Positions 1-12,791 of a stretch of 64,000 nt of DNA are shown here, one piece after another. The notes under the pieces are model-generated. The model saw only the letters and a list, made by a program, of their open reading frames with translations. It was not told the DNA's origin and searched no databases. How positions within the stretch are numbered: the first letter of the stretch is position 1; each line of letters opens with the position of its first letter. The stretch is from positions 2,152-66,151 of the forward strand of contig JAFYWI010000002.1 in the NCBI GenBank assembly GCA_017558105.1, written 5' to 3'. The DNA comes from Clostridia bacterium (GTDB taxonomy: Bacteria; Bacillota; Clostridia; Christensenellales; Borkfalkiaceae). Made by a program: the position numbers and the translations under genes.

Positions 1-503
1 TTTCTCTTATAATATTTATTGTAATATCTTCATTATTAAGGCATCAAAGACCAATAGTGTTAAAAAACACGGCAAAACGCTTACCTTGGGAGTTAATTCC
101 TTTTGTTATATCTATGTTTATAATAGTGTTAGCCCTACAAAAACAAAACGTAACGGAAGTTATTTCTAATTGGCTTAGCAAAGATTATGCTATTTGGAAA
201 TATGGGTTTGCTTCCTTTTTATCTTGCAACCTAATGAATAATATTCCAATGAGCGTTTTATTTAGCACTATTCCAAATTTTGCTAACCCACTTTTACAAA
301 ACCAAGCAATATATTCAACTATTATAGGCTCTAATATAGGTGCGTTTTTAACCCCTATTGGCGCGCTTGCCGGCATTATGTTTACAGATTTAATTGCAAA
401 ACAAAAGGTTAAATATACTTTTTTAAGTTTTATTAAATACGGCGTTATTATTGCCATACCAACCATTTTAGGTGCTTTGCTAGGATTAAGCATTGTTTTA
501 TAA
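1..503 (+). CDS. ArsB/NhaD-superfamily permease, C-terminal part (5' end lies outside the window)
   Basis: Frame 3 is open from the window edge to the stop at 501-503. Polytopic hydrophobic sequence with NNIPMSVLF and GSNIGAFLTPIGALAG, typical of arsenical-pump/citrate-transporter-like permeases. A hairpin terminator follows. Confidence 0.6.
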   Translation, partial: SLIIFIVISSLLRHQRPIVLKNTAKRLPWELIPFVISMFIIVLALQKQNVTEVISNWLSKDYAIWKYGFASFLSCNLMNNIPMSVLFSTIPNFANPLLQNQAIYSTIIGSNIGAFLTPIGALAGIMFTDLIAKQKVKYTFLSFIKYGVIIAIPTILGALLGLSIVL

Positions 504-538
504 AAAATTTTTTAAGTAAACTATATATACGTTAAAAA

Positions 539-570
539 ACGGACTTTGATTTTTCAAAGTCCGTTTTTTT
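539..570 (+). terminator. Rho-independent terminator of the permease gene
   Basis: acggactttga / tcaaagtccgt stem followed by a T7 run. Confidence 0.8.
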
Positions 571-636
571 ACTAACAAGCCAATAAGCAAAACTATAACT
601 AAATTTTAATGTGAATTTAGCCATTAAATTATTGCA

Positions 637-1746
637 TTATTTATTTTTTAAATTTTCCATAAAAGCAATTTTATTCTCTTTTGCCGTTGTAGTTGGTCTG
701 CCAAGGTCTTCCCTTGCACCTATTGCGCATTTTACTTCTATAAAAGATAACGCCTTTTTTTTCTTTGCGTTTTTAAGTGCAATCTCTAATGAATCAAAAT
801 CGCTTACGCATACGGCATTATCGTAACCACAACCTAAAGCAATTTTAACTAAATTTATGTCTTTTGCAACGGTAGGCATGCCCCCAACAGTCTCATGCGA
901 GCCGTTATTTATTACTACGTGCACGACGTTTTTAGGCGAATTAGTTCCAAGAACTGCCATTGCCCCCATGTGCATTAGCACAGCACCGTCGCCGTCTATA
1001 ATCCACACCTTTTTATCTGCTTTAACGTTTGCAATTCCCAAAGCAATTGAGGAAGAATGCCCCATAGAACCTACGGTTAAAAAGTCCTTCCCGTGTGATT
1101 GCCCGTTCGCCTCCCTAATTTCAAATAATTCTCTAGATGCTTTGCCCGTTGTAGAAACTATTACGTCTTCTCCACTAACTGAAACGATACGTTTAATTAT
1201 TTCTTCACGCATCATAGTATTGCCGTTTGTATATTTAACTTTTTTATCAAATTCAAGCGAACCTTTTTTTACTACAAAAGCTACTTGTTTTCCACTATCT
1301 AATAAAGGTTGCCACTCTTTCAATTGATTTTCCACTTCTATAGAAGTAGTTTCTTTAGTTATTATAAACGTTTTAATATCCATATCTTCAAGTAATTTAA
1401 CGGTTACTTCGCCTTGATAGATATGTTGAGGCTCGTCGTGAACGCCTGGTTCACCACGCCAACCAACGATAAAAATACACGGAATTCCATACACCTTATC
1501 GTTCATAAGAGATGCAACTGGGTTAATAATGTTGCCAAGCCCACTATTCTGCATATAAACAACCGGCACTTTGCCCGTAGCCAAATGATAACCAGCGGCA
1601 ACACCTACCGCATTACCTTCGTTTGCCGTAATTACGTGCTTGTCTGATATGCCAAATCTATCCATTAGATAATTACAAAGTGGCTTCAATTGAGAGTCTG
1701 GTACACCTGCAAAAAATTCATATTTGCTTAAAAAATCTAGTTTCAT
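637..1746 (-). CDS. ppd: Phosphonopyruvate decarboxylase (TPP-dependent)
   Basis: 369 aa. N-terminus FFAGVPDSQLKPLCNYL and the TPP motif IIDGDGAVLMHMG...NNGSHETVGG are typical of Ppd/AepY. It sits directly downstream of a PEP-mutase gene. Confidence 0.85.
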   Translation of the reverse strand: MKLDFLSKYEFFAGVPDSQLKPLCNYLMDRFGISDKHVITANEGNAVGVAAGYHLATGKVPVVYMQNSGLGNIINPVASLMNDKVYGIPCIFIVGWRGEPGVHDEPQHIYQGEVTVKLLEDMDIKTFIITKETTSIEVENQLKEWQPLLDSGKQVAFVVKKGSLEFDKKVKYTNGNTMMREEIIKRIVSVSGEDVIVSTTGKASRELFEIREANGQSHGKDFLTVGSMGHSSSIALGIANVKADKKVWIIDGDGAVLMHMGAMAVLGTNSPKNVVHVVINNGSHETVGGMPTVAKDINLVKIALGCGYDNAVCVSDFDSLEIALKNAKKKKALSFIEVKCAIGAREDLGRPTTTAKENKIAFMENLKNK

Positions 1747-1756
1747 TTTATCTCCT

Positions 1757-2854
1757 TTATATAACCAACTTAGAATACAACCCGTAAACTTCTTTACTAC
1801 CCAAAGTTACAGGGGTGTTTTTTAGCCTTTCAACGTTTACCGACGACGTAAGATTTTCTAAATGCTCTTCTTTTACACGTGGTTTAGCAAGGTTAAACTC
1901 TAAAATTAATTGATTAAAAATTTCAATGCCGTCTTCAGCCTTTTTTCCACCCATTGCTTGGGCAATTTGTGTAAGCACGCTTTTTAAATAATCTTCTCCA
2001 CGAACGTCTATGCACTTGTTAGAATTATCTATTATATACTTCCAAGTAAGTGGCAAACATACGCTTACCGCGTGCCCGTGTGCTAAACCATAGTTAGAAG
2101 TTATTTTATAACTCATTGCGTGAGCAGCTGTGGTTTTAGATATATTTATTGCCTTACCAGCAAGGTTTGAGGCTATAATAATTTCTTTTGAACTTTTTTC
2201 TTTGTTTTCAAAAACGTATTCTCTTGCAGAACGCATTATCATTTCTATTGCGCATTTAGAATACTCTTTGCTTTCATCGGTAGAATAAACCGACCAAAAA
2301 CTTTCTATTGCTTGACATAAAGCATCTAAAAGAGTGCTTTTTTTCTGATAATCTGAAAGATTGCGCAAAAAGGAATAATCTAACACTGCAAGTGATGGGA
2401 GTAAACTTTGGTGAGCCACAGAATACTTTTTGCCATTTTTATAAATAACTGCAAAGTGTGTTGCCTCACTTCCCGTGCCAGCTGTAGTAGGAATTGCTAC
2501 TAAAGGAATTTTTGTATCTTTATATTCACACCTAACTAAATCTGTATTTTTATCGCCCGCAGAAAAAAGTTTAATACATTTAGCAGTATCTATTGCGCTA
2601 CCTCCACCTACTGCTATAATTGCATCACACCCGTTATCGTTAAAAACTTTAGCCCCCGTAATAGCCTGCTCGTATTGTGGATTAGGAGTAAAGTCACTAA
2701 ACCGTACGAAAGGTATATTTTGTGAATAAATATAGTCTTTTATTAATAGTTTATCAAAAGAGTTAGAACAAACTAGCATAAATTTTTTACTGCGCGAAAG
2801 TTGTAAAAACTCTTTAATAACGCTATAATCTCCGTTTTCAATAATAACAGACAA
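1757..2854 (-). CDS. Group III iron-containing alcohol dehydrogenase, probable phosphonoacetaldehyde reductase (PhpC/FomC-like)
   Basis: 365 aa. GGGSAIDTAKC and the His cluster AAHAMSY...LAHGHAV are typical of Fe-ADHs. It lies between ppd and the pepM fusion with gaps of 10 and 3 nt. Confidence 0.7.
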   Translation of the reverse strand: MSVIIENGDYSVIKEFLQLSRSKKFMLVCSNSFDKLLIKDYIYSQNIPFVRFSDFTPNPQYEQAITGAKVFNDNGCDAIIAVGGGSAIDTAKCIKLFSAGDKNTDLVRCEYKDTKIPLVAIPTTAGTGSEATHFAVIYKNGKKYSVAHQSLLPSLAVLDYSFLRNLSDYQKKSTLLDALCQAIESFWSVYSTDESKEYSKCAIEMIMRSAREYVFENKEKSSKEIIIASNLAGKAINISKTTAAHAMSYKITSNYGLAHGHAVSVCLPLTWKYIIDNSNKCIDVRGEDYLKSVLTQIAQAMGGKKAEDGIEIFNQLILEFNLAKPRVKEEHLENLTSSVNVERLKNTPVTLGSKEVYGLYSKLVI

Positions 2855-2857
2855 TCT

Positions 2858-4867
2858 CTATTCCTCCGGTATTAACGTTATTATTTCTTTTATAGACATA
2901 CACATATCGTCAGCTTCTTTTGCCCTATGGTTTAATAGAATTGTTTTAGCAACGTTTTGCATTGCAGGAAATCCACTTCTAGTAAGTTGATTTGCATAAA
3001 TTACAACGTTAACCCCTCTATCCTTAAACTCTTGTTCCGTTACGGAATTAAACGAAGTAGGCACTACGACTATAGGTGTGATTTCATTTTCTGCCCTAAA
3101 TTTTTCAACAAATTCAAAAATCTCAGTAGGGTCTTTTTTTCTACTGTGAATCATTATTGCGTCTGCCCCAGCTTTACTGAACGCAAAAGCACGAGTTAGC
3201 GCATCTTCCATACCGCGTTCTAAAATTAAACTTTCAATACGCGCACAAATCATAAAGTCTTTAGTTTTTTGAGCCTTTTTCCCTGCTTGAATTTTAGCAC
3301 AAAAATTTTCTATACTATCTTGGGTTTGAACCACTTCTGCCCCAAATAAAGAGTTCTTTTTAAGCCCCGTTTTATCTTCAATAATAACCATAGAAACGCC
3401 CATGCGTTCTAAACTTCTTACGGTATAAATAAAATGCTCGGTAAGTCCACCCGTATCGCCGTCAAAAATTATTGGCTTCGTTGTTACTTCCATTATATCG
3501 TCAATCGTTCTAAACCTTGAAGTCATATCAACGAGTTCAATATCTGGTTTACCTTTTGCAGTACTATCGCATAGCGAAGATACCCACATCGCATCAAACT
3601 GATAAGTCTTGCCGTCTTTTAATACCTTCGTGTTTTCAGCAATAAGCCCCGTTATCCCGCTATGTGCTTCAATAGCGTTTATGCAACCTTTCATTGCCAA
3701 AAGTTTTTTTAGCCTGCCACGACGCATATCTGGCATAGAAAGTTGTTGGCGAGAAGCCTTTTCAAGTTCAATATGTTTTGGGTCTTGTGAATAAGGGAAT
3801 TCTACTAATTTACCACCATAACTTTCTAAAATAGAAATAACTTCATCTCTTATAGGCTTTTGAAAACCTTCTTTCCAGTCGTCGCCGTGTACTACCACGT
3901 CTGGTTTTAACGTGGTTAAAATTTCTTTATAAGATAAATTTTTTTGTTCTATTACCTTAGATACTCCGTTTATATTTTCTACTAAGGTTTTTCTCTCTTC
4001 AAAACTCATTAACGGATAACGTTTATAACTAGCAACTGCCTCGTCTGAAAGAACCCCTACGATTAATTTTCCGTGCCTTTGCGCTTTCTTTAATATGCTT
4101 ATATGCCCACTATGTAACATATCAGTAGAAAAACACATATATACGATTTTATTTTCTATTTCTTTAAGTTTTTTTGAAACCATTGCTAAATCTTCAGGCG
4201 TATCTATTTCTGCGCAAATATCGTTTGCAAAATCAATAGGAACAATTTCGCACTTATCTGATATATTGTTAAACGCGTTTTCTGCGTAACATTTATCTTC
4301 CTTTCTTTCGCAAAATTCTACTATTTCATTAAGCCAACAATTCCACTCTTTTTTATTTAGTTTATAAAGTGGTTGCGCTGCTACGGCATTGGTAAAAAAC
4401 TCAATACCAATTTTTTCCACCCTACCGTCGTGTATTACAGCCTTAAAATCTTTTTCTGGTAAAGGAAGCGTAGTACTTACCGTAACACAGCTTTTTTTGC
4501 TATTTACTACGTTTTCAAAAACAGATTCATCAAAAACAAGGTCTCCGTGCATCATAACGATATCTTCGTCTTTAAGCTCTTCCCTTGCACAATAAATTGA
4601 ATAAATATAATTAGTTTTATCGTAAATAGGGTTATTTACGAAAGTATAATTTAATTCGTAACCTAAATTTTTACAATAATCTACTAACACGTTATCAAAA
4701 TACCCCGTGGTCATAACAACTTCTTTTATGCCAGCGTTAGATATAATTTTTAACTGCCTAGATAAAATTGTTTCTTCGTTATTTATTTCAGTCATACATT
4801 TAGGGTGTTCGCTTGTAAAAGCCCCCATTCTGCGCCCTAAGCCAGAGTTAAGTATTAATGCCTTCAT
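2858..4867 (-). CDS. pepM: Tri-domain fusion: LicC/MobA-like NTP-transferase + HxGH cytidylyltransferase + PEP phosphomutase
   Basis: 669 aa. N-terminus MKALILNSGLGRRMG (GxGxR nucleotidyltransferase). Middle region FSTDMLHSGHISILKKA (HxGH class cytidylyltransferase). C-terminus FDGDTGG...MVIIEDKTGLKKNSLFG (PEP-mutase EDKxxxxxNS signature). Confidence 0.85.
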   Translation of the reverse strand: MKALILNSGLGRRMGAFTSEHPKCMTEINNEETILSRQLKIISNAGIKEVVMTTGYFDNVLVDYCKNLGYELNYTFVNNPIYDKTNYIYSIYCAREELKDEDIVMMHGDLVFDESVFENVVNSKKSCVTVSTTLPLPEKDFKAVIHDGRVEKIGIEFFTNAVAAQPLYKLNKKEWNCWLNEIVEFCERKEDKCYAENAFNNISDKCEIVPIDFANDICAEIDTPEDLAMVSKKLKEIENKIVYMCFSTDMLHSGHISILKKAQRHGKLIVGVLSDEAVASYKRYPLMSFEERKTLVENINGVSKVIEQKNLSYKEILTTLKPDVVVHGDDWKEGFQKPIRDEVISILESYGGKLVEFPYSQDPKHIELEKASRQQLSMPDMRRGRLKKLLAMKGCINAIEAHSGITGLIAENTKVLKDGKTYQFDAMWVSSLCDSTAKGKPDIELVDMTSRFRTIDDIMEVTTKPIIFDGDTGGLTEHFIYTVRSLERMGVSMVIIEDKTGLKKNSLFGAEVVQTQDSIENFCAKIQAGKKAQKTKDFMICARIESLILERGMEDALTRAFAFSKAGADAIMIHSRKKDPTEIFEFVEKFRAENEITPIVVVPTSFNSVTEQEFKDRGVNVVIYANQLTRSGFPAMQNVAKTILLNHRAKEADDMCMSIKEIITLIPEE

Positions 4868-4886
4868 TTGTTCTCCTTTTCATATC

Positions 4887-4915
4887 ATTATAACAAATAC
4901 TAATTCGTTTGTCAA
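4887..4915 (-). promoter_or_regulatory. Consensus sigma-A promoter for the pepM-adh-ppd operon
   Basis: On the minus strand: TTGACA, 17 nt, TATAAT. The -10 box ends 20 nt upstream of the ATG and GGAG lies at 4873-4876. Confidence 0.6.
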
Positions 4916-5035
4916 TTACTACGCAAACACCAGCAAAGCACAATATAAAAAAACTAATAAATTATTGCTTAAAATACTGAATTTATAACTAGTGTTTGAA
5001 CGAAATAGAAAAGTCAAAACAAGTATTGCAAAAAG

Positions 5036-5064
5036 TTGCAAAATAAACTTAATTGTGGTATACT
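5036..5064 (+). promoter_or_regulatory. Sigma-A promoter (extended -10) for the divergent transferase operon
   Basis: TTGCAA, 17 nt, TATACT, with a TGn extension (tgg) immediately upstream of the -10 box. Confidence 0.5.
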
Positions 5065-5088
5065 ATTTACGTTTTTATAAGAGCAAAG

Positions 5089-6921
5089 ATGGAGCATATG
5101 AAGAAAATGGAAAAAAACGAACAACTCACCTTTAAACAAAGAACGATAAAGCGTATTTTACCTACGCTTCTTTTCTCTTTAGCAATTCCTTTTATAACGT
5201 GTATTTGCATTCCGTTTGAAATTTTTGCAAACAATATTGAGCAATTTGTTTTTTCTGTAAAAGACTTTTTGCCTTTATCTATTTTAATATCTTTAGGCGC
5301 AACGATAATTTTCTTTTTTTCTCTTTTATTTTTACCAGAAAAAGCATACAGAATAGTTGCTTCAATATACTTGGCTTTAGCATTTTTATTTTTTATTCAA
5401 AGCAATTATCTTAACGTTGGAGTACGTTCGCTTGCTGGCGACGGATTAGGCTCTAGCATATCGTTAGTTAGCAAAATAATTAATCTTTTTGTTTGGCTGT
5501 TGGTTTTAGGCGTTGCCGTGTTTTTTGCAGTTTTTAAAAAGTGGCACGATATTTTATCTATGGTTGCAGTAGGGCTTTGCGCGGTTATTACTATTTCTTC
5601 TCTTATGTCTCCTTTCGTGCTTGCAATTTCTACAAAAAACGTTTTTAAAACTAAGGCTGAACGCGTAAACCTAAACGGAGAAGACACGTTTAATATTTTA
5701 ACTACAAAAAACCTTACTAATATTTCTTCTAATGGTAACGTATTTATTTTCGTTGTAGACGTTATGGATAAAACGTTCGTTGAAGAAGCCATTGAAAAGC
5801 GTCCTGAAATTTTTAATAGTTTAGATGGGTTTACTTATTTCGAAGATAACCTTTCTCTTTTTGGGCACACTTTCCCTTCCGTTGCAAACATTATTACGGG
5901 CGCAGAGTTTGAAGTTACAAAGGAACGTTCTAAATATTTAAATAACGCTTATCAAAACGCCGTTCCTTTAGATATTTTAGATGAAAACGGATATCAAATT
6001 AATATTTTTAGTCAAGGTTTTTACGCTTATGAAGATGCTAGTTATATGCCTTCATACGTTAGTAACGTTTCAGAAGCAGTAAAAACTAACGTTAAACATC
6101 CTTTTTTATTAACTGCAAACTTTATTCAAATTGCTTTATACCGTTGTTTCCCTCTATTTTTAAAAAATTTAGTAGGTAACGTAGATTCAGCTGAAACCAA
6201 CAACTTCGTTTCTTGCGAAGATGAAAACGGGTACAAACAATATTCAACCGACTTAAAAGAAGTATACAACACAATTCAAAGTTCTAAAGACGATGGTAAA
6301 TTTACCACGATAAACGATAAAAAAGTGTTTTCACTCGTTCACGTTTATGGTTGCCATAGCATTAAGTATAACGCAAATTGGCAAAAACCTACCGGGAAAG
6401 ACAGAAACGATATAACCCTTTCTCTTATGAATAGTTTTAGCATTATAAACGAATACATAAAGGCAATGAAAGATATTGGCGTTTACGAAGAATCTACTAT
6501 TCTTATTTTAGGCGATCACGGAAAACCAATAAACGACTTGAAAGATCTTTCTCGCCCAATCCAAACAGGATTATTTATTAAACAAAAAGGCGCTGGAAAC
6601 GTTGCCGGCGAAGGTTACAAAATTAGTAGTAGCCAAGTAAGTCATTCTCAAATTTGGTCAACTATATTTGATAGTGAAAATATAACTCTTACTCCAGAAC
6701 AACAAGAAGCGTATAATCAAACGACGTTTAAGAAACTTAACCCTGAAGATAAATCGCATTTTGATATTTTAGAAGACGAAAACGTTACTAGATATTATTT
6801 CTGGCATACCTATGCTGGCGATTGCGATGAGTATAAGTACAAAATTACTGGTGCTGGCAATAACTTTAACAATTGGGAAATGTACGAACACATACACACG
6901 GATAAATTTCTTATGAACTAA
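5089..6921 (+). CDS. Polytopic membrane protein with an extracytoplasmic alkaline-phosphatase-superfamily (LtaS/sulfatase/phosphotransferase-like) domain
   Basis: The track ORF starts at TTG 5053 and I prefer ATG 5089 (MEHMKKMEK). About 5-6 N-terminal TM helices are followed by a soluble domain with FIFVVDVMD and ILILGDHGKP motifs, as in LtaS/EptA-type enzymes. Confidence 0.55.
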   Translation: MEHMKKMEKNEQLTFKQRTIKRILPTLLFSLAIPFITCICIPFEIFANNIEQFVFSVKDFLPLSILISLGATIIFFFSLLFLPEKAYRIVASIYLALAFLFFIQSNYLNVGVRSLAGDGLGSSISLVSKIINLFVWLLVLGVAVFFAVFKKWHDILSMVAVGLCAVITISSLMSPFVLAISTKNVFKTKAERVNLNGEDTFNILTTKNLTNISSNGNVFIFVVDVMDKTFVEEAIEKRPEIFNSLDGFTYFEDNLSLFGHTFPSVANIITGAEFEVTKERSKYLNNAYQNAVPLDILDENGYQINIFSQGFYAYEDASYMPSYVSNVSEAVKTNVKHPFLLTANFIQIALYRCFPLFLKNLVGNVDSAETNNFVSCEDENGYKQYSTDLKEVYNTIQSSKDDGKFTTINDKKVFSLVHVYGCHSIKYNANWQKPTGKDRNDITLSLMNSFSIINEYIKAMKDIGVYEESTILILGDHGKPINDLKDLSRPIQTGLFIKQKGAGNVAGEGYKISSSQVSHSQIWSTIFDSENITLTPEQQEAYNQTTFKKLNPEDKSHFDILEDENVTRYYFWHTYAGDCDEYKYKITGAGNNFNNWEMYEHIHTDKFLMN

Positions 6922-6931
6922 AGGTAAAATC

Positions 6932-9043
6932 ATGGATAAAATTATGTACTACGTTTGTATCCCTTTTGGATACATTATGAAATGGTGCTATCAATTAGTA
7001 GGAAACTACGGCATAGCGATTATTTTATTTACACTTGCTACTAAATTAGTTTTACTACCTATTTCGGTTTGGATTCACAAAAACTCTATATTAATGGTAA
7101 AAATTCAACCAGAAATAAACTTCATGAAGGCTAGGCTTCATGGTAATATGGATGCTATTGCAGACGAGCAAGCAAAAATATTTAAACGCGAGCACTACCA
7201 CCCTATGCTATCGCTTGTACCTTTATTATTGCAAATATTTTTATTGCTTGCAGTAGTTTATATTATTTACCATCCAATGAATTACTTGCTTGGAATATCA
7301 GACCAAGCAATAAGTAGCCTTGCTACCTACCTTAAATTAGACGTTTCGCAATCTTCTTACCAACTTTATATTATTGACGCAATAAAATCTGGTACGATTA
7401 CGGCAAGTTTAAGTTCAGAAATAGGGCTTTCCCCTGCTGTTCTTGGTGATATTATTAGCAAGGTAAACGGTTTCAACTTAAACTTTATTGGAATTAATCT
7501 TTCTATCGTACCGGCAGAAGTTTGGGGTTGGTTTATACTTGTTCCTATCGTTGCTGGTGCATCTTCTTGGTTTATGAGTTTTACACAAAACGCATCTAAC
7601 GTTATTCAACATGAACAAAGTAAAATTAACCAATATACTATTATGGCAATAAGCGTTGGGCTTTCGCTTTATTTAGGGCTATTTGTTCCTACAGGACTTG
7701 CTATTTATTGGGTTTCTAGCAACCTTTTATCCGTTTTACAAATGTACTGCTTAAACGCCGTTATAAACCCTAAAAAATACGTAGACCACGACGCACTAGA
7801 ACAATCTAGAAAAGTGCTTAACGATGCAAAATCTTATGGCAAAATAGACAAACACGACCCTTTGTTTAAGAAAATGAAAAAACGCGAAAAAGTAGATTAT
7901 AAAGCATTTATGCGCGTTGCCAATAAACACATCGTTATATATTCTGAAAAAAGTGGCTTTTATAAGTATTTTAAAGACGTAATGGACGAAATGTTAAAAC
8001 GTTCTAACGTGGTTATTCATTACGTTACCAACGATTATAACGACCAAATTTTTGAAGTGGCAAAAAAAGAACCACGTATAAAACCTTATTACATAAGCCT
8101 AAAGAAAACCATCCTTTTAATGATGATGGTAGAAACTGACGTTTTTATTATGACTACGCCAGATTTAAATAAGTATTACCTTAAAAAATCTTTTACGAAA
8201 AAAGACATTGAATATATCTATATCCCACACGATTCAATGAGTGCGCATAAAAACTTTAACGAAGGCGCTTTTGACGAATTTAATACCATACTTTGCGTAG
8301 GTAAGCATTTTGTAGATGAAATTAGAGCAATTGAAAAACTTTACAAATTACCTGCCAAAAACCTTGTGGAATTTGGTTTTCCACTTCTTGATAATTTAGT
8401 AGAAACCGTTAAAGCACAACTACCTAAAAAAACCAACAAAACAAAAAAAGAAATTTTAATTGCACCTTCTTGGCAAGAAGAAAACATTTTAGAGAGTTGT
8501 ATAGATACTATTATTGAAAAACTTTATAGCGATAATTATCACATAACGGTAAGACCTCACCCTGAATTCGTTAAAAGATTTGGCTACAAATTAAATCAAT
8601 TAGTTAATAAATACTCTAATTACGATAAGGATAAACTTACTTTTGAATTAGATTTCTCTAGTAATAGCTCCGTTTATAATGCAGACCTTATGATAACGGA
8701 CTGGTCTGGAATAGCTGCAGAATATAGTTTTGCAACGGGTAGACCTACTATTTTTATTAATACTAAAATGAAGGTAAATAACCCTAATTGGCAAAATATT
8801 GATATAACGCCTATTGAAATTAAGCTAAGAAGTGAAATCGGTATCCCCGTAGATTTAGATAACCTTGTTAATATAGATAAAATCGTAAGCGATGCTATAA
8901 CTAACGCTAAAAAATACAAAGAGAAAATTGAAGAATGCTTTAAAACCTTTACTTTTAACCATGGTACAGCTGCTAAAGTTGGCGCTGATTACATTCTTAA
9001 AAGTATTATTAATAAACAACAAAAAGCAAAAGAAAAAAATTAA
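6932..9043 (+). CDS. Fusion of a YidC/Oxa1-type membrane insertase domain with a CDP-glycerol glycerophosphotransferase (TagB/TagF family) domain
   Basis: 703 aa. The N-terminal ~280 aa carry GIAIILFTLATKLVLLPISV...QPE...LVPLLLQI...GLAIYWVSSNLLSVLQ (YidC pattern). The C-terminal ~400 aa carry ADLMITDWSGIAAEYSFATGRPTIFI (Glyphos_transf pattern). Confidence 0.75.
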   Translation: MDKIMYYVCIPFGYIMKWCYQLVGNYGIAIILFTLATKLVLLPISVWIHKNSILMVKIQPEINFMKARLHGNMDAIADEQAKIFKREHYHPMLSLVPLLLQIFLLLAVVYIIYHPMNYLLGISDQAISSLATYLKLDVSQSSYQLYIIDAIKSGTITASLSSEIGLSPAVLGDIISKVNGFNLNFIGINLSIVPAEVWGWFILVPIVAGASSWFMSFTQNASNVIQHEQSKINQYTIMAISVGLSLYLGLFVPTGLAIYWVSSNLLSVLQMYCLNAVINPKKYVDHDALEQSRKVLNDAKSYGKIDKHDPLFKKMKKREKVDYKAFMRVANKHIVIYSEKSGFYKYFKDVMDEMLKRSNVVIHYVTNDYNDQIFEVAKKEPRIKPYYISLKKTILLMMMVETDVFIMTTPDLNKYYLKKSFTKKDIEYIYIPHDSMSAHKNFNEGAFDEFNTILCVGKHFVDEIRAIEKLYKLPAKNLVEFGFPLLDNLVETVKAQLPKKTNKTKKEILIAPSWQEENILESCIDTIIEKLYSDNYHITVRPHPEFVKRFGYKLNQLVNKYSNYDKDKLTFELDFSSNSSVYNADLMITDWSGIAAEYSFATGRPTIFINTKMKVNNPNWQNIDITPIEIKLRSEIGIPVDLDNLVNIDKIVSDAITNAKKYKEKIEECFKTFTFNHGTAAKVGADYILKSIINKQQKAKEKN

Positions 9044-9063
9044 AATATTTTAAGGAGAATATT

Positions 9064-9294
9064 ATGAACCTACTTTCAAGTTTTTATCAATTACTTTATA
9101 TTGACCCTGCTGCAACGACTGTTCTTTTAACTTCTATAACTGCTATAGTTGCCGCTATTGGAGCTTCTGCTATAATAATATGGCGTAAACTTAAGAAAAA
9201 TGTTAAGAAAACATTTCATATTGACGAAAATGCCAATAAAGAAGTTGAAGAAGATTTAGTTATTACTGAAGACAACTCTAATAAAGAAGACTAA
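9064..9294 (+). CDS. Small single-pass membrane protein with an acidic C-terminal tail
   Basis: 76 aa with RBS aaggagaatattATG. One TM segment (TTVLLTSITAIVAAIGASAIIIW) and last gene of the cassette. Confidence 0.5.
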   Translation: MNLLSSFYQLLYIDPAATTVLLTSITAIVAAIGASAIIIWRKLKKNVKKTFHIDENANKEVEEDLVITEDNSNKED

Positions 9295-9308: not shown

Positions 9309-9406
9309 AAAAGTTAAATATACTTTTAAGTTTTATTAAATACGGCGTTATTATTGCCATACCAACCATTTTAGGTGCTTTGTTAGGGTTAGCAATAATG
9401 CTATAA
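9309..9406 (+). pseudogene. Orphan remnant of the 3' end of an ArsB-like permease gene (duplicate of ~403-503)
   Basis: A 55-nt block is identical to 423-477 (aagttttattaaatacggcg...ggtgctttg). Small indels upstream break the frame. It ends ...GALLGLAIML* versus ...GALLGLSIVL* in the intact copy. Confidence 0.75.
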
Positions 9407-9422
9407 AATACATTTTAAAAAT

Positions 9423-9457
9423 AAAAACGGACTTTGAATTTTCAAAGTCCGTTTTTG
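9423..9457. terminator. Bidirectional hairpin terminator, near-copy of 539-570
   Basis: acggactttgaa / ttcaaagtccgt stem flanked by A and T runs. It serves the remnant and the convergent yccF. Confidence 0.7.
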
Positions 9458-9475
9458 TATTTATTTAATTAAATT

Positions 9476-9857: not shown

Positions 9858-12764
9858 TTATACTTTTCTTATTAAATCTACAGGTTTTTCTTTTGTAATT
9901 TTAATTATTGGTATTAAACTTGCCATAAAACCTGTTAACAGGCTTGCCAATAATATTATTAAAATTTGCCTTACGCCAAATATTACGAAACTAACGCTTA
10001 AGTACATAATATTCATTATATAATTACTTACTATTATACAAGCAATATAAGAACATATCGTTGCCAGAACTCCGCTTATTAAAGAAATAATAAAACTTTC
10101 TACCATAAACATAACGAATATATTTTTACTACTTGCGCCAAGACCACGTAGCACACCGATTGATTGCTTTTTAGAAATTATACTTGTAGCAACGTAGTTA
10201 AACAACAAGAATACAGAGAATAAAACTACTACTAAAGAAACGTATAAGAATAAGTTTGCAAACTCTTCTATATATTCTTTATTATATTCAATCGTTGATA
10301 AAATGTTATTTTCGTACCAATTTAATTTCATTCCCGTTTGCGTTGACATTGCCTTAGCAAGAGTTTGAGCACCAAAATAGTTGTAACCTAAAGGTGCTAT
10401 CATACGAGAATAAATGCCCTGTTCTTTATTAATTTTTAACAAATTAAAACCAGAATCAGAAAGCAATAGGTTTCCATACGTGCTTAAAGAATTTTCGCTC
10501 GAGTAAATATTCGTATCTGCATTTAAATATATACCTTTAACAATTAAATCTTCTTCTATAATTTTCTTGCCGTTTTCGTAAAAGACTATTCTTATTTCTT
10601 TTAGGTTTTCTTCGTGTGTTCCACGTATTTTATTTATTAAAACAACTAAATCGTTAACGGCAGTTACTTTATCAGAATAATCGTTTGAAGAGCTTTTAAT
10701 TTCGTTAATTAATCTGTTTAACTCGTCGTAATCATCACTTTCGGCAGATACTCTTTCTTCAGAAAACAACCTGTGTAATGCCTTTGCAGAAACCAACACT
10801 TCGTGCGCTTTTAAAGATGGTTCGCCCGTACTGCCATCAAACATTATTATATTATTTGCAGTAAAATCATCTAAATTATAAAACAAATAACTGTGCGCGC
10901 TTTGTACGTTTTTATTTCCAACTTCTACTTCGCCCGTAACGTAGTTAGTTACGTAACTTGTTACTGAATTATTTTTTGTTCTTAGTTGTTCAACGTAACC
11001 ACCCGCAACGAACAATAATTTATTTAGACTTGCGTTTATATAGGTGTTATAATCTTGTGCTAAAGAGTATTCATCGCCACTCATAACAGATTTTAACTTT
11101 TCGTATTTTGGCGAAATTTTGCCACAATCTACAATACCTACAACCTTAAATCTTTTATTTACACCGTTGCTCATAAGACGGTCTATTTCAATAGTTGTGC
11201 CAATTAAATCTTCTGTTTTTTCTATTACTTTTCCGTCGTATTCAATAACTTGTTCTAACGGATTTCTTATACCCAACCAATACACTATACTTTCTGCCAT
11301 ATAACTTGAAATAGCTACTTCTGGAAGAGTTCCTTGCGTCTCTAACTTTGGATATCTACCATAAATTCTATAATTGTAAGAAGAAGTAGATATATATTCA
11401 TCGTTACCTTTTTTAACTATTTCATCTGCAGTAAACTCTATTAAACCATTTACTTGTTGATGATAATAATCTTTACCATACGAATTATTAGCATACCTTG
11501 TAGCAGTTAAACTCCAACCTTTGTTGTAGTTATAGTTTCCTTCAACGGCTGTGATACTAGTTGTATCGTCTATATCGTAAACGCCCTTAAAAGCATAGCC
11601 GGTAGATGCACTAATTCTATCTATATACTCTTGGCTAATTTTTAGGTCTACGTCGTAATAATAATCGTCTTCATAAGAAGCATAAACGGAAACGGCGCCA
11701 TAATCGTTATTGCGCAATAAATGCGACAATGCAGTTACACCATTATATGATGCAACCGAATCGAACAACCCAAACAATGCAAATGCTACTACAGAAAGTA
11801 AAATTGTAAATATTAGCCTTAAAGGTTTAACGAATATTGATTTTGCACCTAAACCTGCACAAGTAGTAAACTTCATTTTACTATTTATAAGTGGCGCAGG
11901 GGTTTCTGGGTGAACGGCTTCTATTTTTCCCGTTTGTTTCTTTTCTCTAACGTTTAGTTCTTCTTTTACAACTATTTTTTTTCTTTCTTTAACTGCTTTT
12001 GCTAGTTTTTTGGTTTCATCTTCGGTTAAAGAACTACCAGATAATACCGTTATTTCGCTTTCTTGTTCGTAAACGTTGCCAACAATTTTTTGCTCGGAAA
12101 CCAACAAGTCTTCTGCAATAACCCCGTCTACAAACCTAATAATTCTGTCTGCATACTTTTCGGCAAATTCCATTTCGTGAGAAACTACTACAACCAACTT
12201 TTCTTTAGAAAGTTCTTTTAGTAGGTCCATAACTTGTTTACCAGAAAGGCTATCTAAAGCGCCGGTAGGTTCATCGGCTAAAATTATTTTAGGGTTTTTA
12301 ATAAGCGCCCTTGCTATTGCTACCCTTTGCTTTTGCCCACCACTCATTTCAGTTGGATTTCTTTTTGCATAACCTTCTATACCAACCCTTTCTAGTAAAG
12401 CATTTAACGTTTCTTCGTTGGTAACATTACCTTGTAATTCGTTAGCCATACCTATGTTCTTTTCTACAAGGTATTCGTTTAATAAATTATATTCTTGAAA
12501 AACGAAACCTACGAAAGTGTTTCTATAACTGTCGTAATCAGAAGGTGAAAAGGAAGAAAATTTTCTTCCGTCTATAATAATTTCGCCACTATCTATATTA
12601 TCTAAGCCACCAACGACGTTCAAAAGGGTGGTTTTACCACTACCACTTTTACCCGTTATAAACACCATACCCATATCTGGAAAAACTATGTTTACGTTGT
12701 TAAGAGCAACTGTGTTTCCTGCCTTAGTGATATAAGTTTTTTTTACGTTAATTAATTCTAACAT
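9858..12764 (-). CDS. Fused ABC transporter ATPase + FtsX/MacB-type permease
   Basis: Walker A GKSGSGKTT, signature MSGGQKQRVAIARAL, Walker B ILADEPT, a large extracytoplasmic region and C-terminal FtsX-like helices. ATG 12764 with GGAG at 12771-12774 is preferred over the TTG at 12776. Confidence 0.85.
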   Translation of the reverse strand: MLELINVKKTYITKAGNTVALNNVNIVFPDMGMVFITGKSGSGKTTLLNVVGGLDNIDSGEIIIDGRKFSSFSPSDYDSYRNTFVGFVFQEYNLLNEYLVEKNIGMANELQGNVTNEETLNALLERVGIEGYAKRNPTEMSGGQKQRVAIARALIKNPKIILADEPTGALDSLSGKQVMDLLKELSKEKLVVVVSHEMEFAEKYADRIIRFVDGVIAEDLLVSEQKIVGNVYEQESEITVLSGSSLTEDETKKLAKAVKERKKIVVKEELNVREKKQTGKIEAVHPETPAPLINSKMKFTTCAGLGAKSIFVKPLRLIFTILLSVVAFALFGLFDSVASYNGVTALSHLLRNNDYGAVSVYASYEDDYYYDVDLKISQEYIDRISASTGYAFKGVYDIDDTTSITAVEGNYNYNKGWSLTATRYANNSYGKDYYHQQVNGLIEFTADEIVKKGNDEYISTSSYNYRIYGRYPKLETQGTLPEVAISSYMAESIVYWLGIRNPLEQVIEYDGKVIEKTEDLIGTTIEIDRLMSNGVNKRFKVVGIVDCGKISPKYEKLKSVMSGDEYSLAQDYNTYINASLNKLLFVAGGYVEQLRTKNNSVTSYVTNYVTGEVEVGNKNVQSAHSYLFYNLDDFTANNIIMFDGSTGEPSLKAHEVLVSAKALHRLFSEERVSAESDDYDELNRLINEIKSSSNDYSDKVTAVNDLVVLINKIRGTHEENLKEIRIVFYENGKKIIEEDLIVKGIYLNADTNIYSSENSLSTYGNLLLSDSGFNLLKINKEQGIYSRMIAPLGYNYFGAQTLAKAMSTQTGMKLNWYENNILSTIEYNKEYIEEFANLFLYVSLVVVLFSVFLLFNYVATSIISKKQSIGVLRGLGASSKNIFVMFMVESFIISLISGVLATICSYIACIIVSNYIMNIMYLSVSFVIFGVRQILIILLASLLTGFMASLIPIIKITKEKPVDLIRKV

Positions 12765-12791
12765 ATAATTCTCCAAAAAATCTCAACTACT

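Follow-up and report, generated by a model that had tools for sequence, protein, structure and literature searches.

Enzymes of the TagF/TarL/TagB group (PF04464), represented by the structures of Staphylococcus epidermidis TagF (3L7I–3L7M) and Staphylococcus aureus TarL (8VA1), use CDP-glycerol or CDP-ribitol as donors and are held at the membrane by an amphipathic-helix anchor. A relative of these enzymes is encoded in a 64,000-nucleotide stretch of DNA (hereafter the window, meaning the whole stretch that was analysed) from a Clostridia bacterium of the Borkfalkiaceae (GenBank assembly GCA_017558105.1, contig JAFYWI010000002.1), in which a single gene (P0001) joins an N-terminal domain of the YidC/Oxa1 insertase family to a C-terminal TagF-like domain. 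P0001 is similar to TagF and TarL in its GT-B fold, in its motifs, in a putatively equivalent invariant His of the N-terminal lobe, and in having a predicted cytoplasmic domain acting at the membrane face. However, a covalent five-helix YidC domain is placed in front instead of the amphipathic helix, sequence identity is only 15–20%, the Pfam match covers the C-terminal lobe only, the predicted donor is CMP-2-hydroxyethylphosphonate (CMP-HEP), and the context lacks TagO, TagA, TagGH or LCP. The analysis described here points to P0001 as the best candidate for the enzyme that places phosphonates on the cell surface. It also leads to the evenly balanced proposal that the fusion forms the membrane-bound centre of an envelope-tailoring system with four parts, being neither a housekeeping insertase nor a classical teichoic-acid polymerase.

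By analogy, the nearest characterised enzyme in logic appears to be FtaD from Clostridioides difficile, a TagF-like CDP-N-methylthreonine:GlcNAc phosphotransferase that moves a single head group in vitro (bioRxiv 10.64898/2026.02.12.704994). FtaD also uses an unusual CDP-linked donor made by a dedicated cytidylyltransferase whose gene lies in the same operon, a logic similar to that of the P0001 cassette, although it is soluble and free-standing, acts on a cytoplasmic glycoprotein (flagellin), and has no YidC domain, LtaS-like partner, or phosphonate donor. Regarding the N-terminal half, the YidC/Oxa1/SpoIIIJ insertases (3WO6/3WO7; E. coli 3WVF) share with P0001 the core fold, the positive charge of the first transmembrane helix (K38), and the signature positions, whereas P0001 has no lipoprotein signal, carries an extracytoplasmic insert of ~70 amino acids (aa) and extra polar groove residues, and contains an enzyme in place of the C-terminal tail.

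The gene directly upstream (P0002) encodes a membrane enzyme comparable to LtaS, GacH, EptA (MCR-1), and PbgA, with which it shares a helical anchor followed by an outward-facing domain, an invariant Thr, a D–H pair, and further Asp/His residues. Enzymes of this type operate through a covalent phospho-Thr relay from a lipid donor, and LtaS, GacH, and EptA use the head groups of phosphatidylglycerol (PG) or phosphatidylethanolamine (PE). The residue set of P0002 would fit such a relay. Nevertheless, P0002 scores below the Pfam Sulfatase cut-off and is coupled to a cytoplasmic transferase of its own, which suggests a custom lipid donor and not bulk PG or PE. In the GtrA/B/C, CsbB–GtcA–YfhO, and ArnC–ArnE/F–ArnT systems, a lipid carrier is loaded inside, moved across the membrane, and its cargo transferred outside. 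The relay proposed below follows the same logic by analogy only. Its proteins come from wholly different families, and it would carry a phospho- or phosphono-alcohol, where those systems carry a sugar.

Finally, the cassette shares phosphoenolpyruvate (PEP) mutase, phosphonopyruvate decarboxylase (Ppd), an Fe-alcohol dehydrogenase, and a Fom1-like route to CMP-HEP with the early fosfomycin pathway (the cytidylyltransferase–PEP mutase Fom1, Fom2, and FomC) and with PntC-type activation, but it lacks antibiotic tailoring enzymes and is tied to envelope enzymes instead. Most bacterial phosphonate synthesis is directed to cell-surface decoration, and the cassette provides a concrete and compact candidate for the transferase step after CMP-phosphonates, which has been called enigmatic (PMC6697681); the relevant transferases are not mentioned in PMC8931226. 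A non-exhaustive literature search found no paper on the fusion, its partners, or the phosphonate link. The domain architecture is already present in sequence databases, labelled only as YidC. New here are a compact repeat-bracketed cassette with a predictable donor and an independent operon in which the parts are split but combined with that same pathway.

The fusion gene is organized as follows:

6932–9043, plus strand: YidC–TagF-like fusion gene (P0001), 703 aa.
6932–7765, plus strand: YidC/Oxa1 domain, aa 1–278, with five transmembrane helices, the C1 hairpin, and a ~70-aa extracytoplasmic insert (aa ~115–197).
7766–7921, plus strand: Lys-rich helical linker, aa 279–330, with helices 286–301 and 310–328 in the AlphaFold2 (AF2) model.
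7922–9043, plus strand: TagF/TarL-like GT-B phosphotransferase domain, aa 331–703, recognised from PF04464, fold, and motifs.

P0001 is a single uninterrupted open reading frame from the ATG at 6932 to the stop at 9043, with 703 codons and no internal stops. It is not an assembly artefact, because full-length relatives occur in the genomes of at least 586 species, as found in a scan in which each prokaryote species was represented by one genome. Identities of 60–82% with P0001 over the full length were seen for more than 120 protein clusters, and the domain junction (about 7700–7930) is spanned without indels by contigs of three independent gut-metagenome studies. A frameshift or an assembly mis-join, one of the objections foreseen in the original prediction of this fusion, was rejected on these grounds, namely the conservation in hundreds of genomes and the indel-free contigs crossing the junction. 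Among the best 80 of the at least 586 relatives, almost all belong to uncultured gut or rumen Clostridia, with labels such as Christensenellaceae, Oscillospiraceae, Acutalibacteraceae, and Ruminococcus; the ESM Atlas contains further PF02096 plus PF04464 clusters, one of them mainly from Actinomycetota. NCBI names the full-length relatives only "membrane protein insertase YidC", a label that is misleading for these fusions. Hundreds of uncultured Clostridia species of the gut and rumen carry the module, and the surface chemistry of these bacteria shapes their interactions with host and phages.

Residues 1–278 form a complete YidC fold. Pfam 60KD_IMP (PF02096) matches aa 26–275 with 91.6 bits (cut-off 35), TIGR03592 matches the protein with 90.9 bits (cut-off 84.3), and the sequences of the E. 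coli and Bacillus halodurans YidC structures align with the N-terminal half. The AF2 model, built from an alignment of 45 relatives (mean predicted local distance difference test, pLDDT, 90.8; predicted template modelling score, pTM, 0.72), contains the five-helix core and the cytoplasmic C1 hairpin, and its residues 1–286 match B. halodurans YidC2 (3WO7) with a Z-score of 19.4 and a root-mean-square deviation of 2.9 Å over 203 of 225 residues. The canonical signature positions F33, T34, K38, P43, P60, K85, Y89, P97, and Y259 are retained, and Q101, Q219, N223, W260, and N264 are kept specifically in the fusion family as compared with housekeeping YidCs. At the conserved groove Arg of YidC (E. 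coli R366; B. halodurans R72), proposed earlier as a check on this domain, the positive charge is present as Lys38, which aligns with E. coli R366, and K or R is found there in 43 of the 45 relatives. Each of the 22 housekeeping YidCs compared from the same order likewise carries a basic residue at this position, K in 17 and R in five.

The source genome (1.07 Mb, 85% complete) contains a second, separate yidC on another contig (G000:C5). Housekeeping yidC was found in all 12 other genomes of the genus, whereas the fusion occurs in only two of these 12, that is, in three of 13 when the source genome is included. In a quick maximum-likelihood tree, a branch with a Shimodaira–Hasegawa-like approximate likelihood ratio support (SH-aLRT) of 99 separates 27 fused YidC domains from 22 housekeeping copies of the same order. 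In this tree, the fused domains form a clade of their own, and the fusion represents an accessory second copy. The identification of P0001 as the housekeeping YidC was rejected, given this clade and the separate yidC present in every genome checked. The fusion is a natural case for asking whether the YidC fold has been recruited beyond protein insertion.

The housekeeping YidC of the genus is itself unusually long, with open frames of 470–540 aa (G000:C5:25231–26430, minus strand; loci L002/L003). Its Pfam match is split into profile positions 3–89 and about 92–162, with ~230 residues between them, which suggests a large insertion in the same loop that carries the ~70-aa insert of the fused YidC.

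The C-terminal half was predicted to belong to the TagF family, and this assignment holds, as does that of the YidC half. PF04464 (Glyphos_transf) matches aa 325–703 with 45.9 bits (cut-off 22.1), although only profile positions 147–292 of 367 are covered, and a six-frame search of the genome with this profile gives 46.8 bits at the same half. Pfam scans of the whole of P0001 and of aa 290–703 did not report PF04464 even at an E-value of 10. Of 42 members of the subfamily, 39 match the profile. The top Foldseek match is TagF (3L7K, E 2.4e-10). In VIA-align comparisons, in which the alignment to TagF starts at residues 305–330, the Z-scores are 20.5 for TagF and 20.2 for TarL, but UDP-GlcNAc 2-epimerases also reach about 20; sequence identity is 19–20% with TagF and 10–14% with the epimerases. 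Because other GT-B enzymes score equally by fold, the assignment to the TagF family is based on the profile match and the motifs. H433, S513, R541, H543, D590, W591, S592, K614, and R633 are invariant or nearly so in the relatives, and the invariant motifs comprise H433, APSW (511–514), RPHP (541–544), TDWS (589–592), E597, K614, and R633. The subfamily profile aligns APSW, RPHP, and TDWSG with APTF, KMHP, and SDYSS of TarL. H433 is located in the N-terminal lobe and is the putative counterpart of TagF H444 and TarL H300. With the family motifs invariant, the TagF-like enzyme looks competent.

Two partner genes, which go beyond what was originally predicted, appear obligatory: an LtaS/EptA-like enzyme upstream and a small membrane protein downstream. 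Their conservation was counted over 87 fusion loci.

5053–6921, plus strand: P0002, a membrane enzyme of the alkaline-phosphatase superfamily resembling LtaS, EptA, and PbgA; its start codon is probably the ATG at 5089.
9064–9294, plus strand: small membrane protein of 76 aa with a single transmembrane helix, a Y-[IL]-D-P motif, and a tail that is first basic and then acidic.

The P0002 gene ends 10 nucleotides before the fusion gene. A polytopic LtaS-like gene lies directly upstream of the fusion in 78 of the 87 loci, usually on the same strand and ending a few bases ahead of its start codon. P0002 itself reaches 22.5 bits against Pfam Sulfatase (PF00884; cut-off 25), which some homologues and fused forms pass, and NCBIfam models give no match to it. 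Its AF2 model (pLDDT 91.1, pTM 0.88) shows an N-terminal helical membrane anchor and an extracytoplasmic domain with the alkaline-phosphatase fold, for which Foldseek retrieves full-length PbgA (6XLP, E 1.2e-10), LtaP (4UOP), EptA (5FGN), and MCR-1 (9NWW). D224, D227, T261, H423, D476, and H477 are invariant across 35 homologues of P0002, and its residues were matched by pattern to putative roles like those of T300, E255, D475, and H476 in LtaS. This pattern would be that of a metal-dependent phosphotransferase with a Thr nucleophile and not that of a sulfatase, and P0002, too, looks competent. As for the small single-pass protein, its gene is found ~20–30 bases downstream of the fusion in nearly all of the 87 loci.

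The four parts (LtaS/EptA-like, YidC-like, TagF-like, and tiny single-pass proteins) co-occur across hundreds of genomes, and the first three occur as separate genes, as the two-domain fusion, and as triple fusions. Three of the latter have the order Sulfatase–YidC–TagF (P0124, P0126, and P0128, the last with 1185 aa) and another has the order YidC–TagF–Sulfatase (P0125), both orders being consistent with the expected membrane topology. Conversely, in a fully split operon (L128), separate co-directional genes encode a sulfatase-family protein, a cytidylyltransferase–PEP mutase, Ppd, an Fe-alcohol dehydrogenase, a TagF-like protein, a small protein, and a YidC-like protein. The free-standing TagF-like protein of L128 is 45% identical to the TagF-like domain of the window; the small protein (70 aa) displays the same Y-[IL]-D-P and transmembrane motif together with a signal peptide; and the stand-alone YidC-like protein (224 aa) contains Asn at the K/R groove position. 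Because natural triple fusions and a fully split operon both exist, the parts are considered to work together, and it is highly probable that they form one pathway.

Another locus (L127) further ties the parts together: its short contig groups a LicC-like nucleotidyltransferase with a free-standing TagF-like protein, a small protein, and a member of the sulfatase family. There, a gene of the Polysacc_synt family (Wzx-type flippases) follows the TagF-like, small-protein, and sulfatase-family genes (L127:1–4494), and no YidC gene is visible in the contig, which ends at that point. The presence of a different flippase family at the usual place of YidC could be informative.

The three-gene operon of the fusion is divergent from a minus-strand phosphonate operon, which encodes the following enzymes:

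637–1746, minus strand: phosphonopyruvate decarboxylase, Ppd (TIGR03297, 473.9 bits, cut-off 312.5).
1757–2854, minus strand: Fe-alcohol dehydrogenase (PF00465), candidate phosphonoacetaldehyde reductase with 2-hydroxyethylphosphonate (HEP) as product.
2858–4867, minus strand: P0003 (669 aa), in which an NTP transferase domain similar to LicC, a cytidylyltransferase domain similar to that of Fom1, and a PEP mutase domain are fused, as recognised with Pfam and NCBIfam.

The best NCBIfam match of the Fe-alcohol dehydrogenase is TIGR03405 (Phn_Fe-ADH), with 157 bits, below the cut-off. In P0003, the PEP mutase domain scores 402 bits with TIGR02320, above the cut-off, and the middle domain matches the cytidylyltransferase domain of Fom1 (5X3D) with an E-value of 3.5e-40. 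Fom1 reportedly cytidylylates HEP in fosfomycin synthesis. With PEP mutase, Ppd, this dehydrogenase, and a Fom1-like cytidylyltransferase all encoded in the cassette, CMP-HEP is the probable donor in this genome. Neither an aminoethylphosphonate (AEP) transaminase nor TagD was found above cut-off in the source genome at its 85% completeness, the sole TagD match being the Fom1-like domain itself, and LicD was not found in it either. P0001 is the only PF04464 match and P0002 the only sulfatase-family match of this genome, which also contains two small CDP-alcohol phosphatidyltransferase genes elsewhere. Both PEP-mutase-linked versions of the system, in the window and in L128, encode the Fe-alcohol dehydrogenase route to the hydroxyl-bearing HEP, and neither encodes the AEP route.

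P0003 contains two different nucleotidyltransferase folds before the PEP mutase in one polypeptide. Its N-terminal domain matches LicC (1JYK, E 1e-9) and could activate a second head group. This nucleotidyltransferase–cytidylyltransferase–PEP mutase architecture has already been catalogued in 42 proteins (PMC6697681).

Further sequence elements lie at the edges of, or within, the cassette that comprises both operons:

421–571, plus strand: left direct-repeat copy, consisting of the 3' end of an ArsB-like gene and its terminator, from repeat comparison.
4887–5064, no strand assigned: divergent promoter region, from consensus matches only.
9324–9459, plus strand: right direct-repeat copy bracketing the cassette, from repeat comparison.
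9421–9458, plus strand: terminator-like hairpin closing the three-gene operon within the second repeat copy, from sequence.

The promoter matches, by consensus only, are a perfect TTGACA-17-TATAAT on the minus strand (4915–4887) and a 9/12 match with TG on the plus strand (5036–5064). The repeats are 87% identical between 421–515 and 9324–9418, and 95% identical between 535–571 and 9423–9459. An ArsB/CitMHS-like transporter gene (3–503) has its 3' end and terminator present in copies on both sides of the 8.9-kb cassette, and this flanking duplication looks like the scar of an insertion by recombination. No integrase or transposase is located inside the cassette. The closest relatives (L010/L011, 81% identity) contain the same six genes in a different neighbourhood, and DNA homology to the L010 cassette is confined to 639–4917 and 5130–9272 of the window. 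Because repeats bracket the cassette and the same six genes alone are conserved elsewhere in L010, the six genes appear to behave as one mobile unit. An empty site was sought in genomes of the same genus, which proved too divergent (ArsB-like gene ~42% identical, no YccF match).

Apart from the PEP mutase cassette, other, interchangeable donor modules accompany the fusion in its relatives. They are distributed as follows:

Window lineage and L128 only: PEP mutase cassette.
25 loci: winged helix-turn-helix (wHTH)–nucleotidyltransferase, nearest LicC (1JYK, E 4e-28), then PntC (6PD1, E 1e-13).
16–29 loci: ABC importer, often with the wHTH–nucleotidyltransferase; the importer comes nearest to the NCBIfam models PhnS2, PhnT2, and PhnU2 (putative AEP transporter), without reaching the cut-off of any of them.
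8–9 loci: PhnW/AepZ-like class V aminotransferase together with a TagD-like cytidylyltransferase fused to a GFO/IDH/MocA oxidoreductase.
About half of the 87 loci: none of the recognised donor modules.

The theme shared by these modules seems to be the supply of small cytidylyl-activated phospho- or phosphono-alcohols, and among the conserved cytoplasmic enzymes only the TagF-like domain would be equipped to use them. The conserved function is broader than phosphonate transfer, because most relatives are not beside phosphonate genes. The suggestion made in the original prediction that this domain is a phosphonate transferase gains real support in the window from the Fom1-like cytidylyltransferase, from the failure to find LicD and TagD, and from the HEP pathway of L128.

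In loci with importer and nucleotidyltransferase, the latter is followed by a protein of 308 aa that matches nothing in Pfam or NCBIfam and by a DUF4886 protein (L058:16782–18451). These proteins could represent missing steps of the donor pathway, e.g., a kinase or a tailoring enzyme.

Taken together, gene context suggests a relay in which the head group is loaded inside and transferred outside. The divergent operon would convert PEP into phosphonopyruvate, phosphonoacetaldehyde, and finally HEP, which the Fom1-like domain would convert to CMP-HEP. The TagF-like domain, kept at the inner face by the YidC domain, would then move HEP from CMP-HEP onto the hydroxyl group of a membrane-bound acceptor (lipid or glycolipid) with release of CMP. 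The loaded head group would reach the outer leaflet, perhaps via the conserved hydrophilic groove of YidC, and there the LtaS/EptA-like partner would take it onto its Thr nucleophile and hand it to a surface polymer, either as a single decoration or in an LtaS-style chain growth. This relay is put forward tentatively, with slightly less confidence than the four-part system as such.

Several observations weigh against it. Every chemical step, including acceptor, product, and donor specificity, is read from gene context. The GT-B fold matches TagF (Z 20.5) no better than UDP-GlcNAc 2-epimerases (Z ~20), and the PF04464 match is limited to the C-terminal lobe of the domain. As the genome is 85% complete, the absence of LicD, TagD, and PhnW is unproven. 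Moreover, phosphonate use may be a lineage-specific addition, because about half of the 87 loci have no recognised donor module nearby and the linkage to PEP mutase is found in the window lineage and L128 only.

Most doubtful is what the YidC half does, and it is rather unlikely that this half itself moves the intermediate. That the groove holds or passes a lipid-linked acceptor, as originally suggested for the former, is an inference. Passage through the groove is conceivable because insertases, including YidC, are known to scramble lipids (10.1101/2023.09.01.555937). A working groove is further supported by K/R at position 38, by the fusion-specific polar residues Q101, Q219, N223, and N264, and by the separate YidC-like gene of L128. 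On the other hand, the YidC-like protein of L128 has Asn at the K/R position, and reduced anchors occur in front of the TagF-like domain in other relatives, one of which (P0144) contains no more of YidC than its first helix and a portion of the C1 hairpin, while another (P0153) has an unrelated, non-YidC anchor of two helices. In addition, diacylglycerol lipids with small head groups need no dedicated flippase.

The alternative that survives best, although it is judged unlikely, is a cytoplasmic polymerase, in which the TagF-like domain, working at the inner face and starting from a lipid anchor, would build a teichoic-acid-like chain of poly(glycerol phosphate) or, in the window, of poly(2-hydroxyethylphosphonate). 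The YidC domain would then be a mere anchor, and the LtaS-like enzyme would prime, ligate, or trim the polymer outside. TagF and TarL, the nearest relatives with solved structures, are polymerases, and the truncated or non-YidC anchors agree with an anchoring role; a mere anchor, however, would not be expected to retain polar groove residues or to persist as a separate gene in L128. The route to HEP in the window and L128 also favours polymerization, which requires a free hydroxyl group, HEP accounting for 8.5% of known phosphonate pathways as compared with 56% for AEP (PMC8942020). In contrast, the commonest neighbouring nucleotidyltransferase is LicC/PntC-like, and its solved relatives use phosphocholine or AEP, the products of which cannot be polymerized (the substrate in these loci being putative). 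Furthermore, the conserved set includes no polymer exporter, of the TagGH ABC type or any other, a long polyanion is unlikely to pass the YidC groove, and the example of FtaD demonstrates that an enzyme of the TagF type can transfer just one unit.

The choice of HEP admits a further, highly speculative reading, in which the cassette would build a polymer similar to lipoteichoic acid with carbon–phosphorus bonds in its backbone: from CMP-HEP, the TagF-like domain would make a HEP-lipid, a phosphono-counterpart of PG, the YidC domain would scramble it to the outer leaflet, and the LtaS-like enzyme would polymerize HEP on a glycolipid anchor in the way LtaS polymerizes glycerol phosphate. This reading arises because both independent PEP-mutase-linked versions make the hydroxyl-bearing HEP instead of the commoner AEP, and such an outside, LtaS-style polymerization from HEP-lipid would reconcile the choice of HEP with the lack of a polymer exporter.

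Compared with the cytoplasmic polymerase, it is even less probable that the YidC half acts as a dedicated insertase or chaperone by which two partners, the LtaS-like enzyme with its five helices and the tiny single-pass protein, are inserted or assembled, with the TagF-like domain coupling this to the enzyme complex. Small single-pass proteins with short translocated N-termini, such as M13 procoat and Pf3 coat, are classical YidC-only substrates, and the small downstream protein is shaped like them; moreover, the canonical signature positions and the complete fold with its C1 hairpin are retained. Nevertheless, every genome already possesses a housekeeping YidC to insert such proteins, and the system persists in some lineages whose YidC part is truncated or has lost its charge. 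In YidC2-type insertases, it is the C-terminal tail that contacts the ribosome, and P0001 has a 40-kDa enzyme in its place.

Lastly, mere chance adjacency, with the trio using CDP-glycerol or another ordinary donor and the phosphonate operon serving a transferase elsewhere in the genome, is slightly less probable still than the dedicated insertase. In its favour, PEP mutase is missing from the neighbourhood of most relatives and from all five same-genus genomes compared, although two of these carry the fusion, and the two CDP-alcohol phosphatidyltransferases could in principle use CMP-phosphonates. Against it, the six genes move as a unit (bracketing repeats, and the same six elsewhere in L010/L011), one co-directional operon of an unrelated lineage (L128) combines these parts with the HEP pathway, and a TagD-type CDP-glycerol synthase was not found in the genome.

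Just outside the cassette, the window also encodes a MacB-like protein of 972 aa (9858–12776, minus strand), in which an ABC ATPase, a large extracytoplasmic region, and an FtsX-type permease are fused in a single chain.

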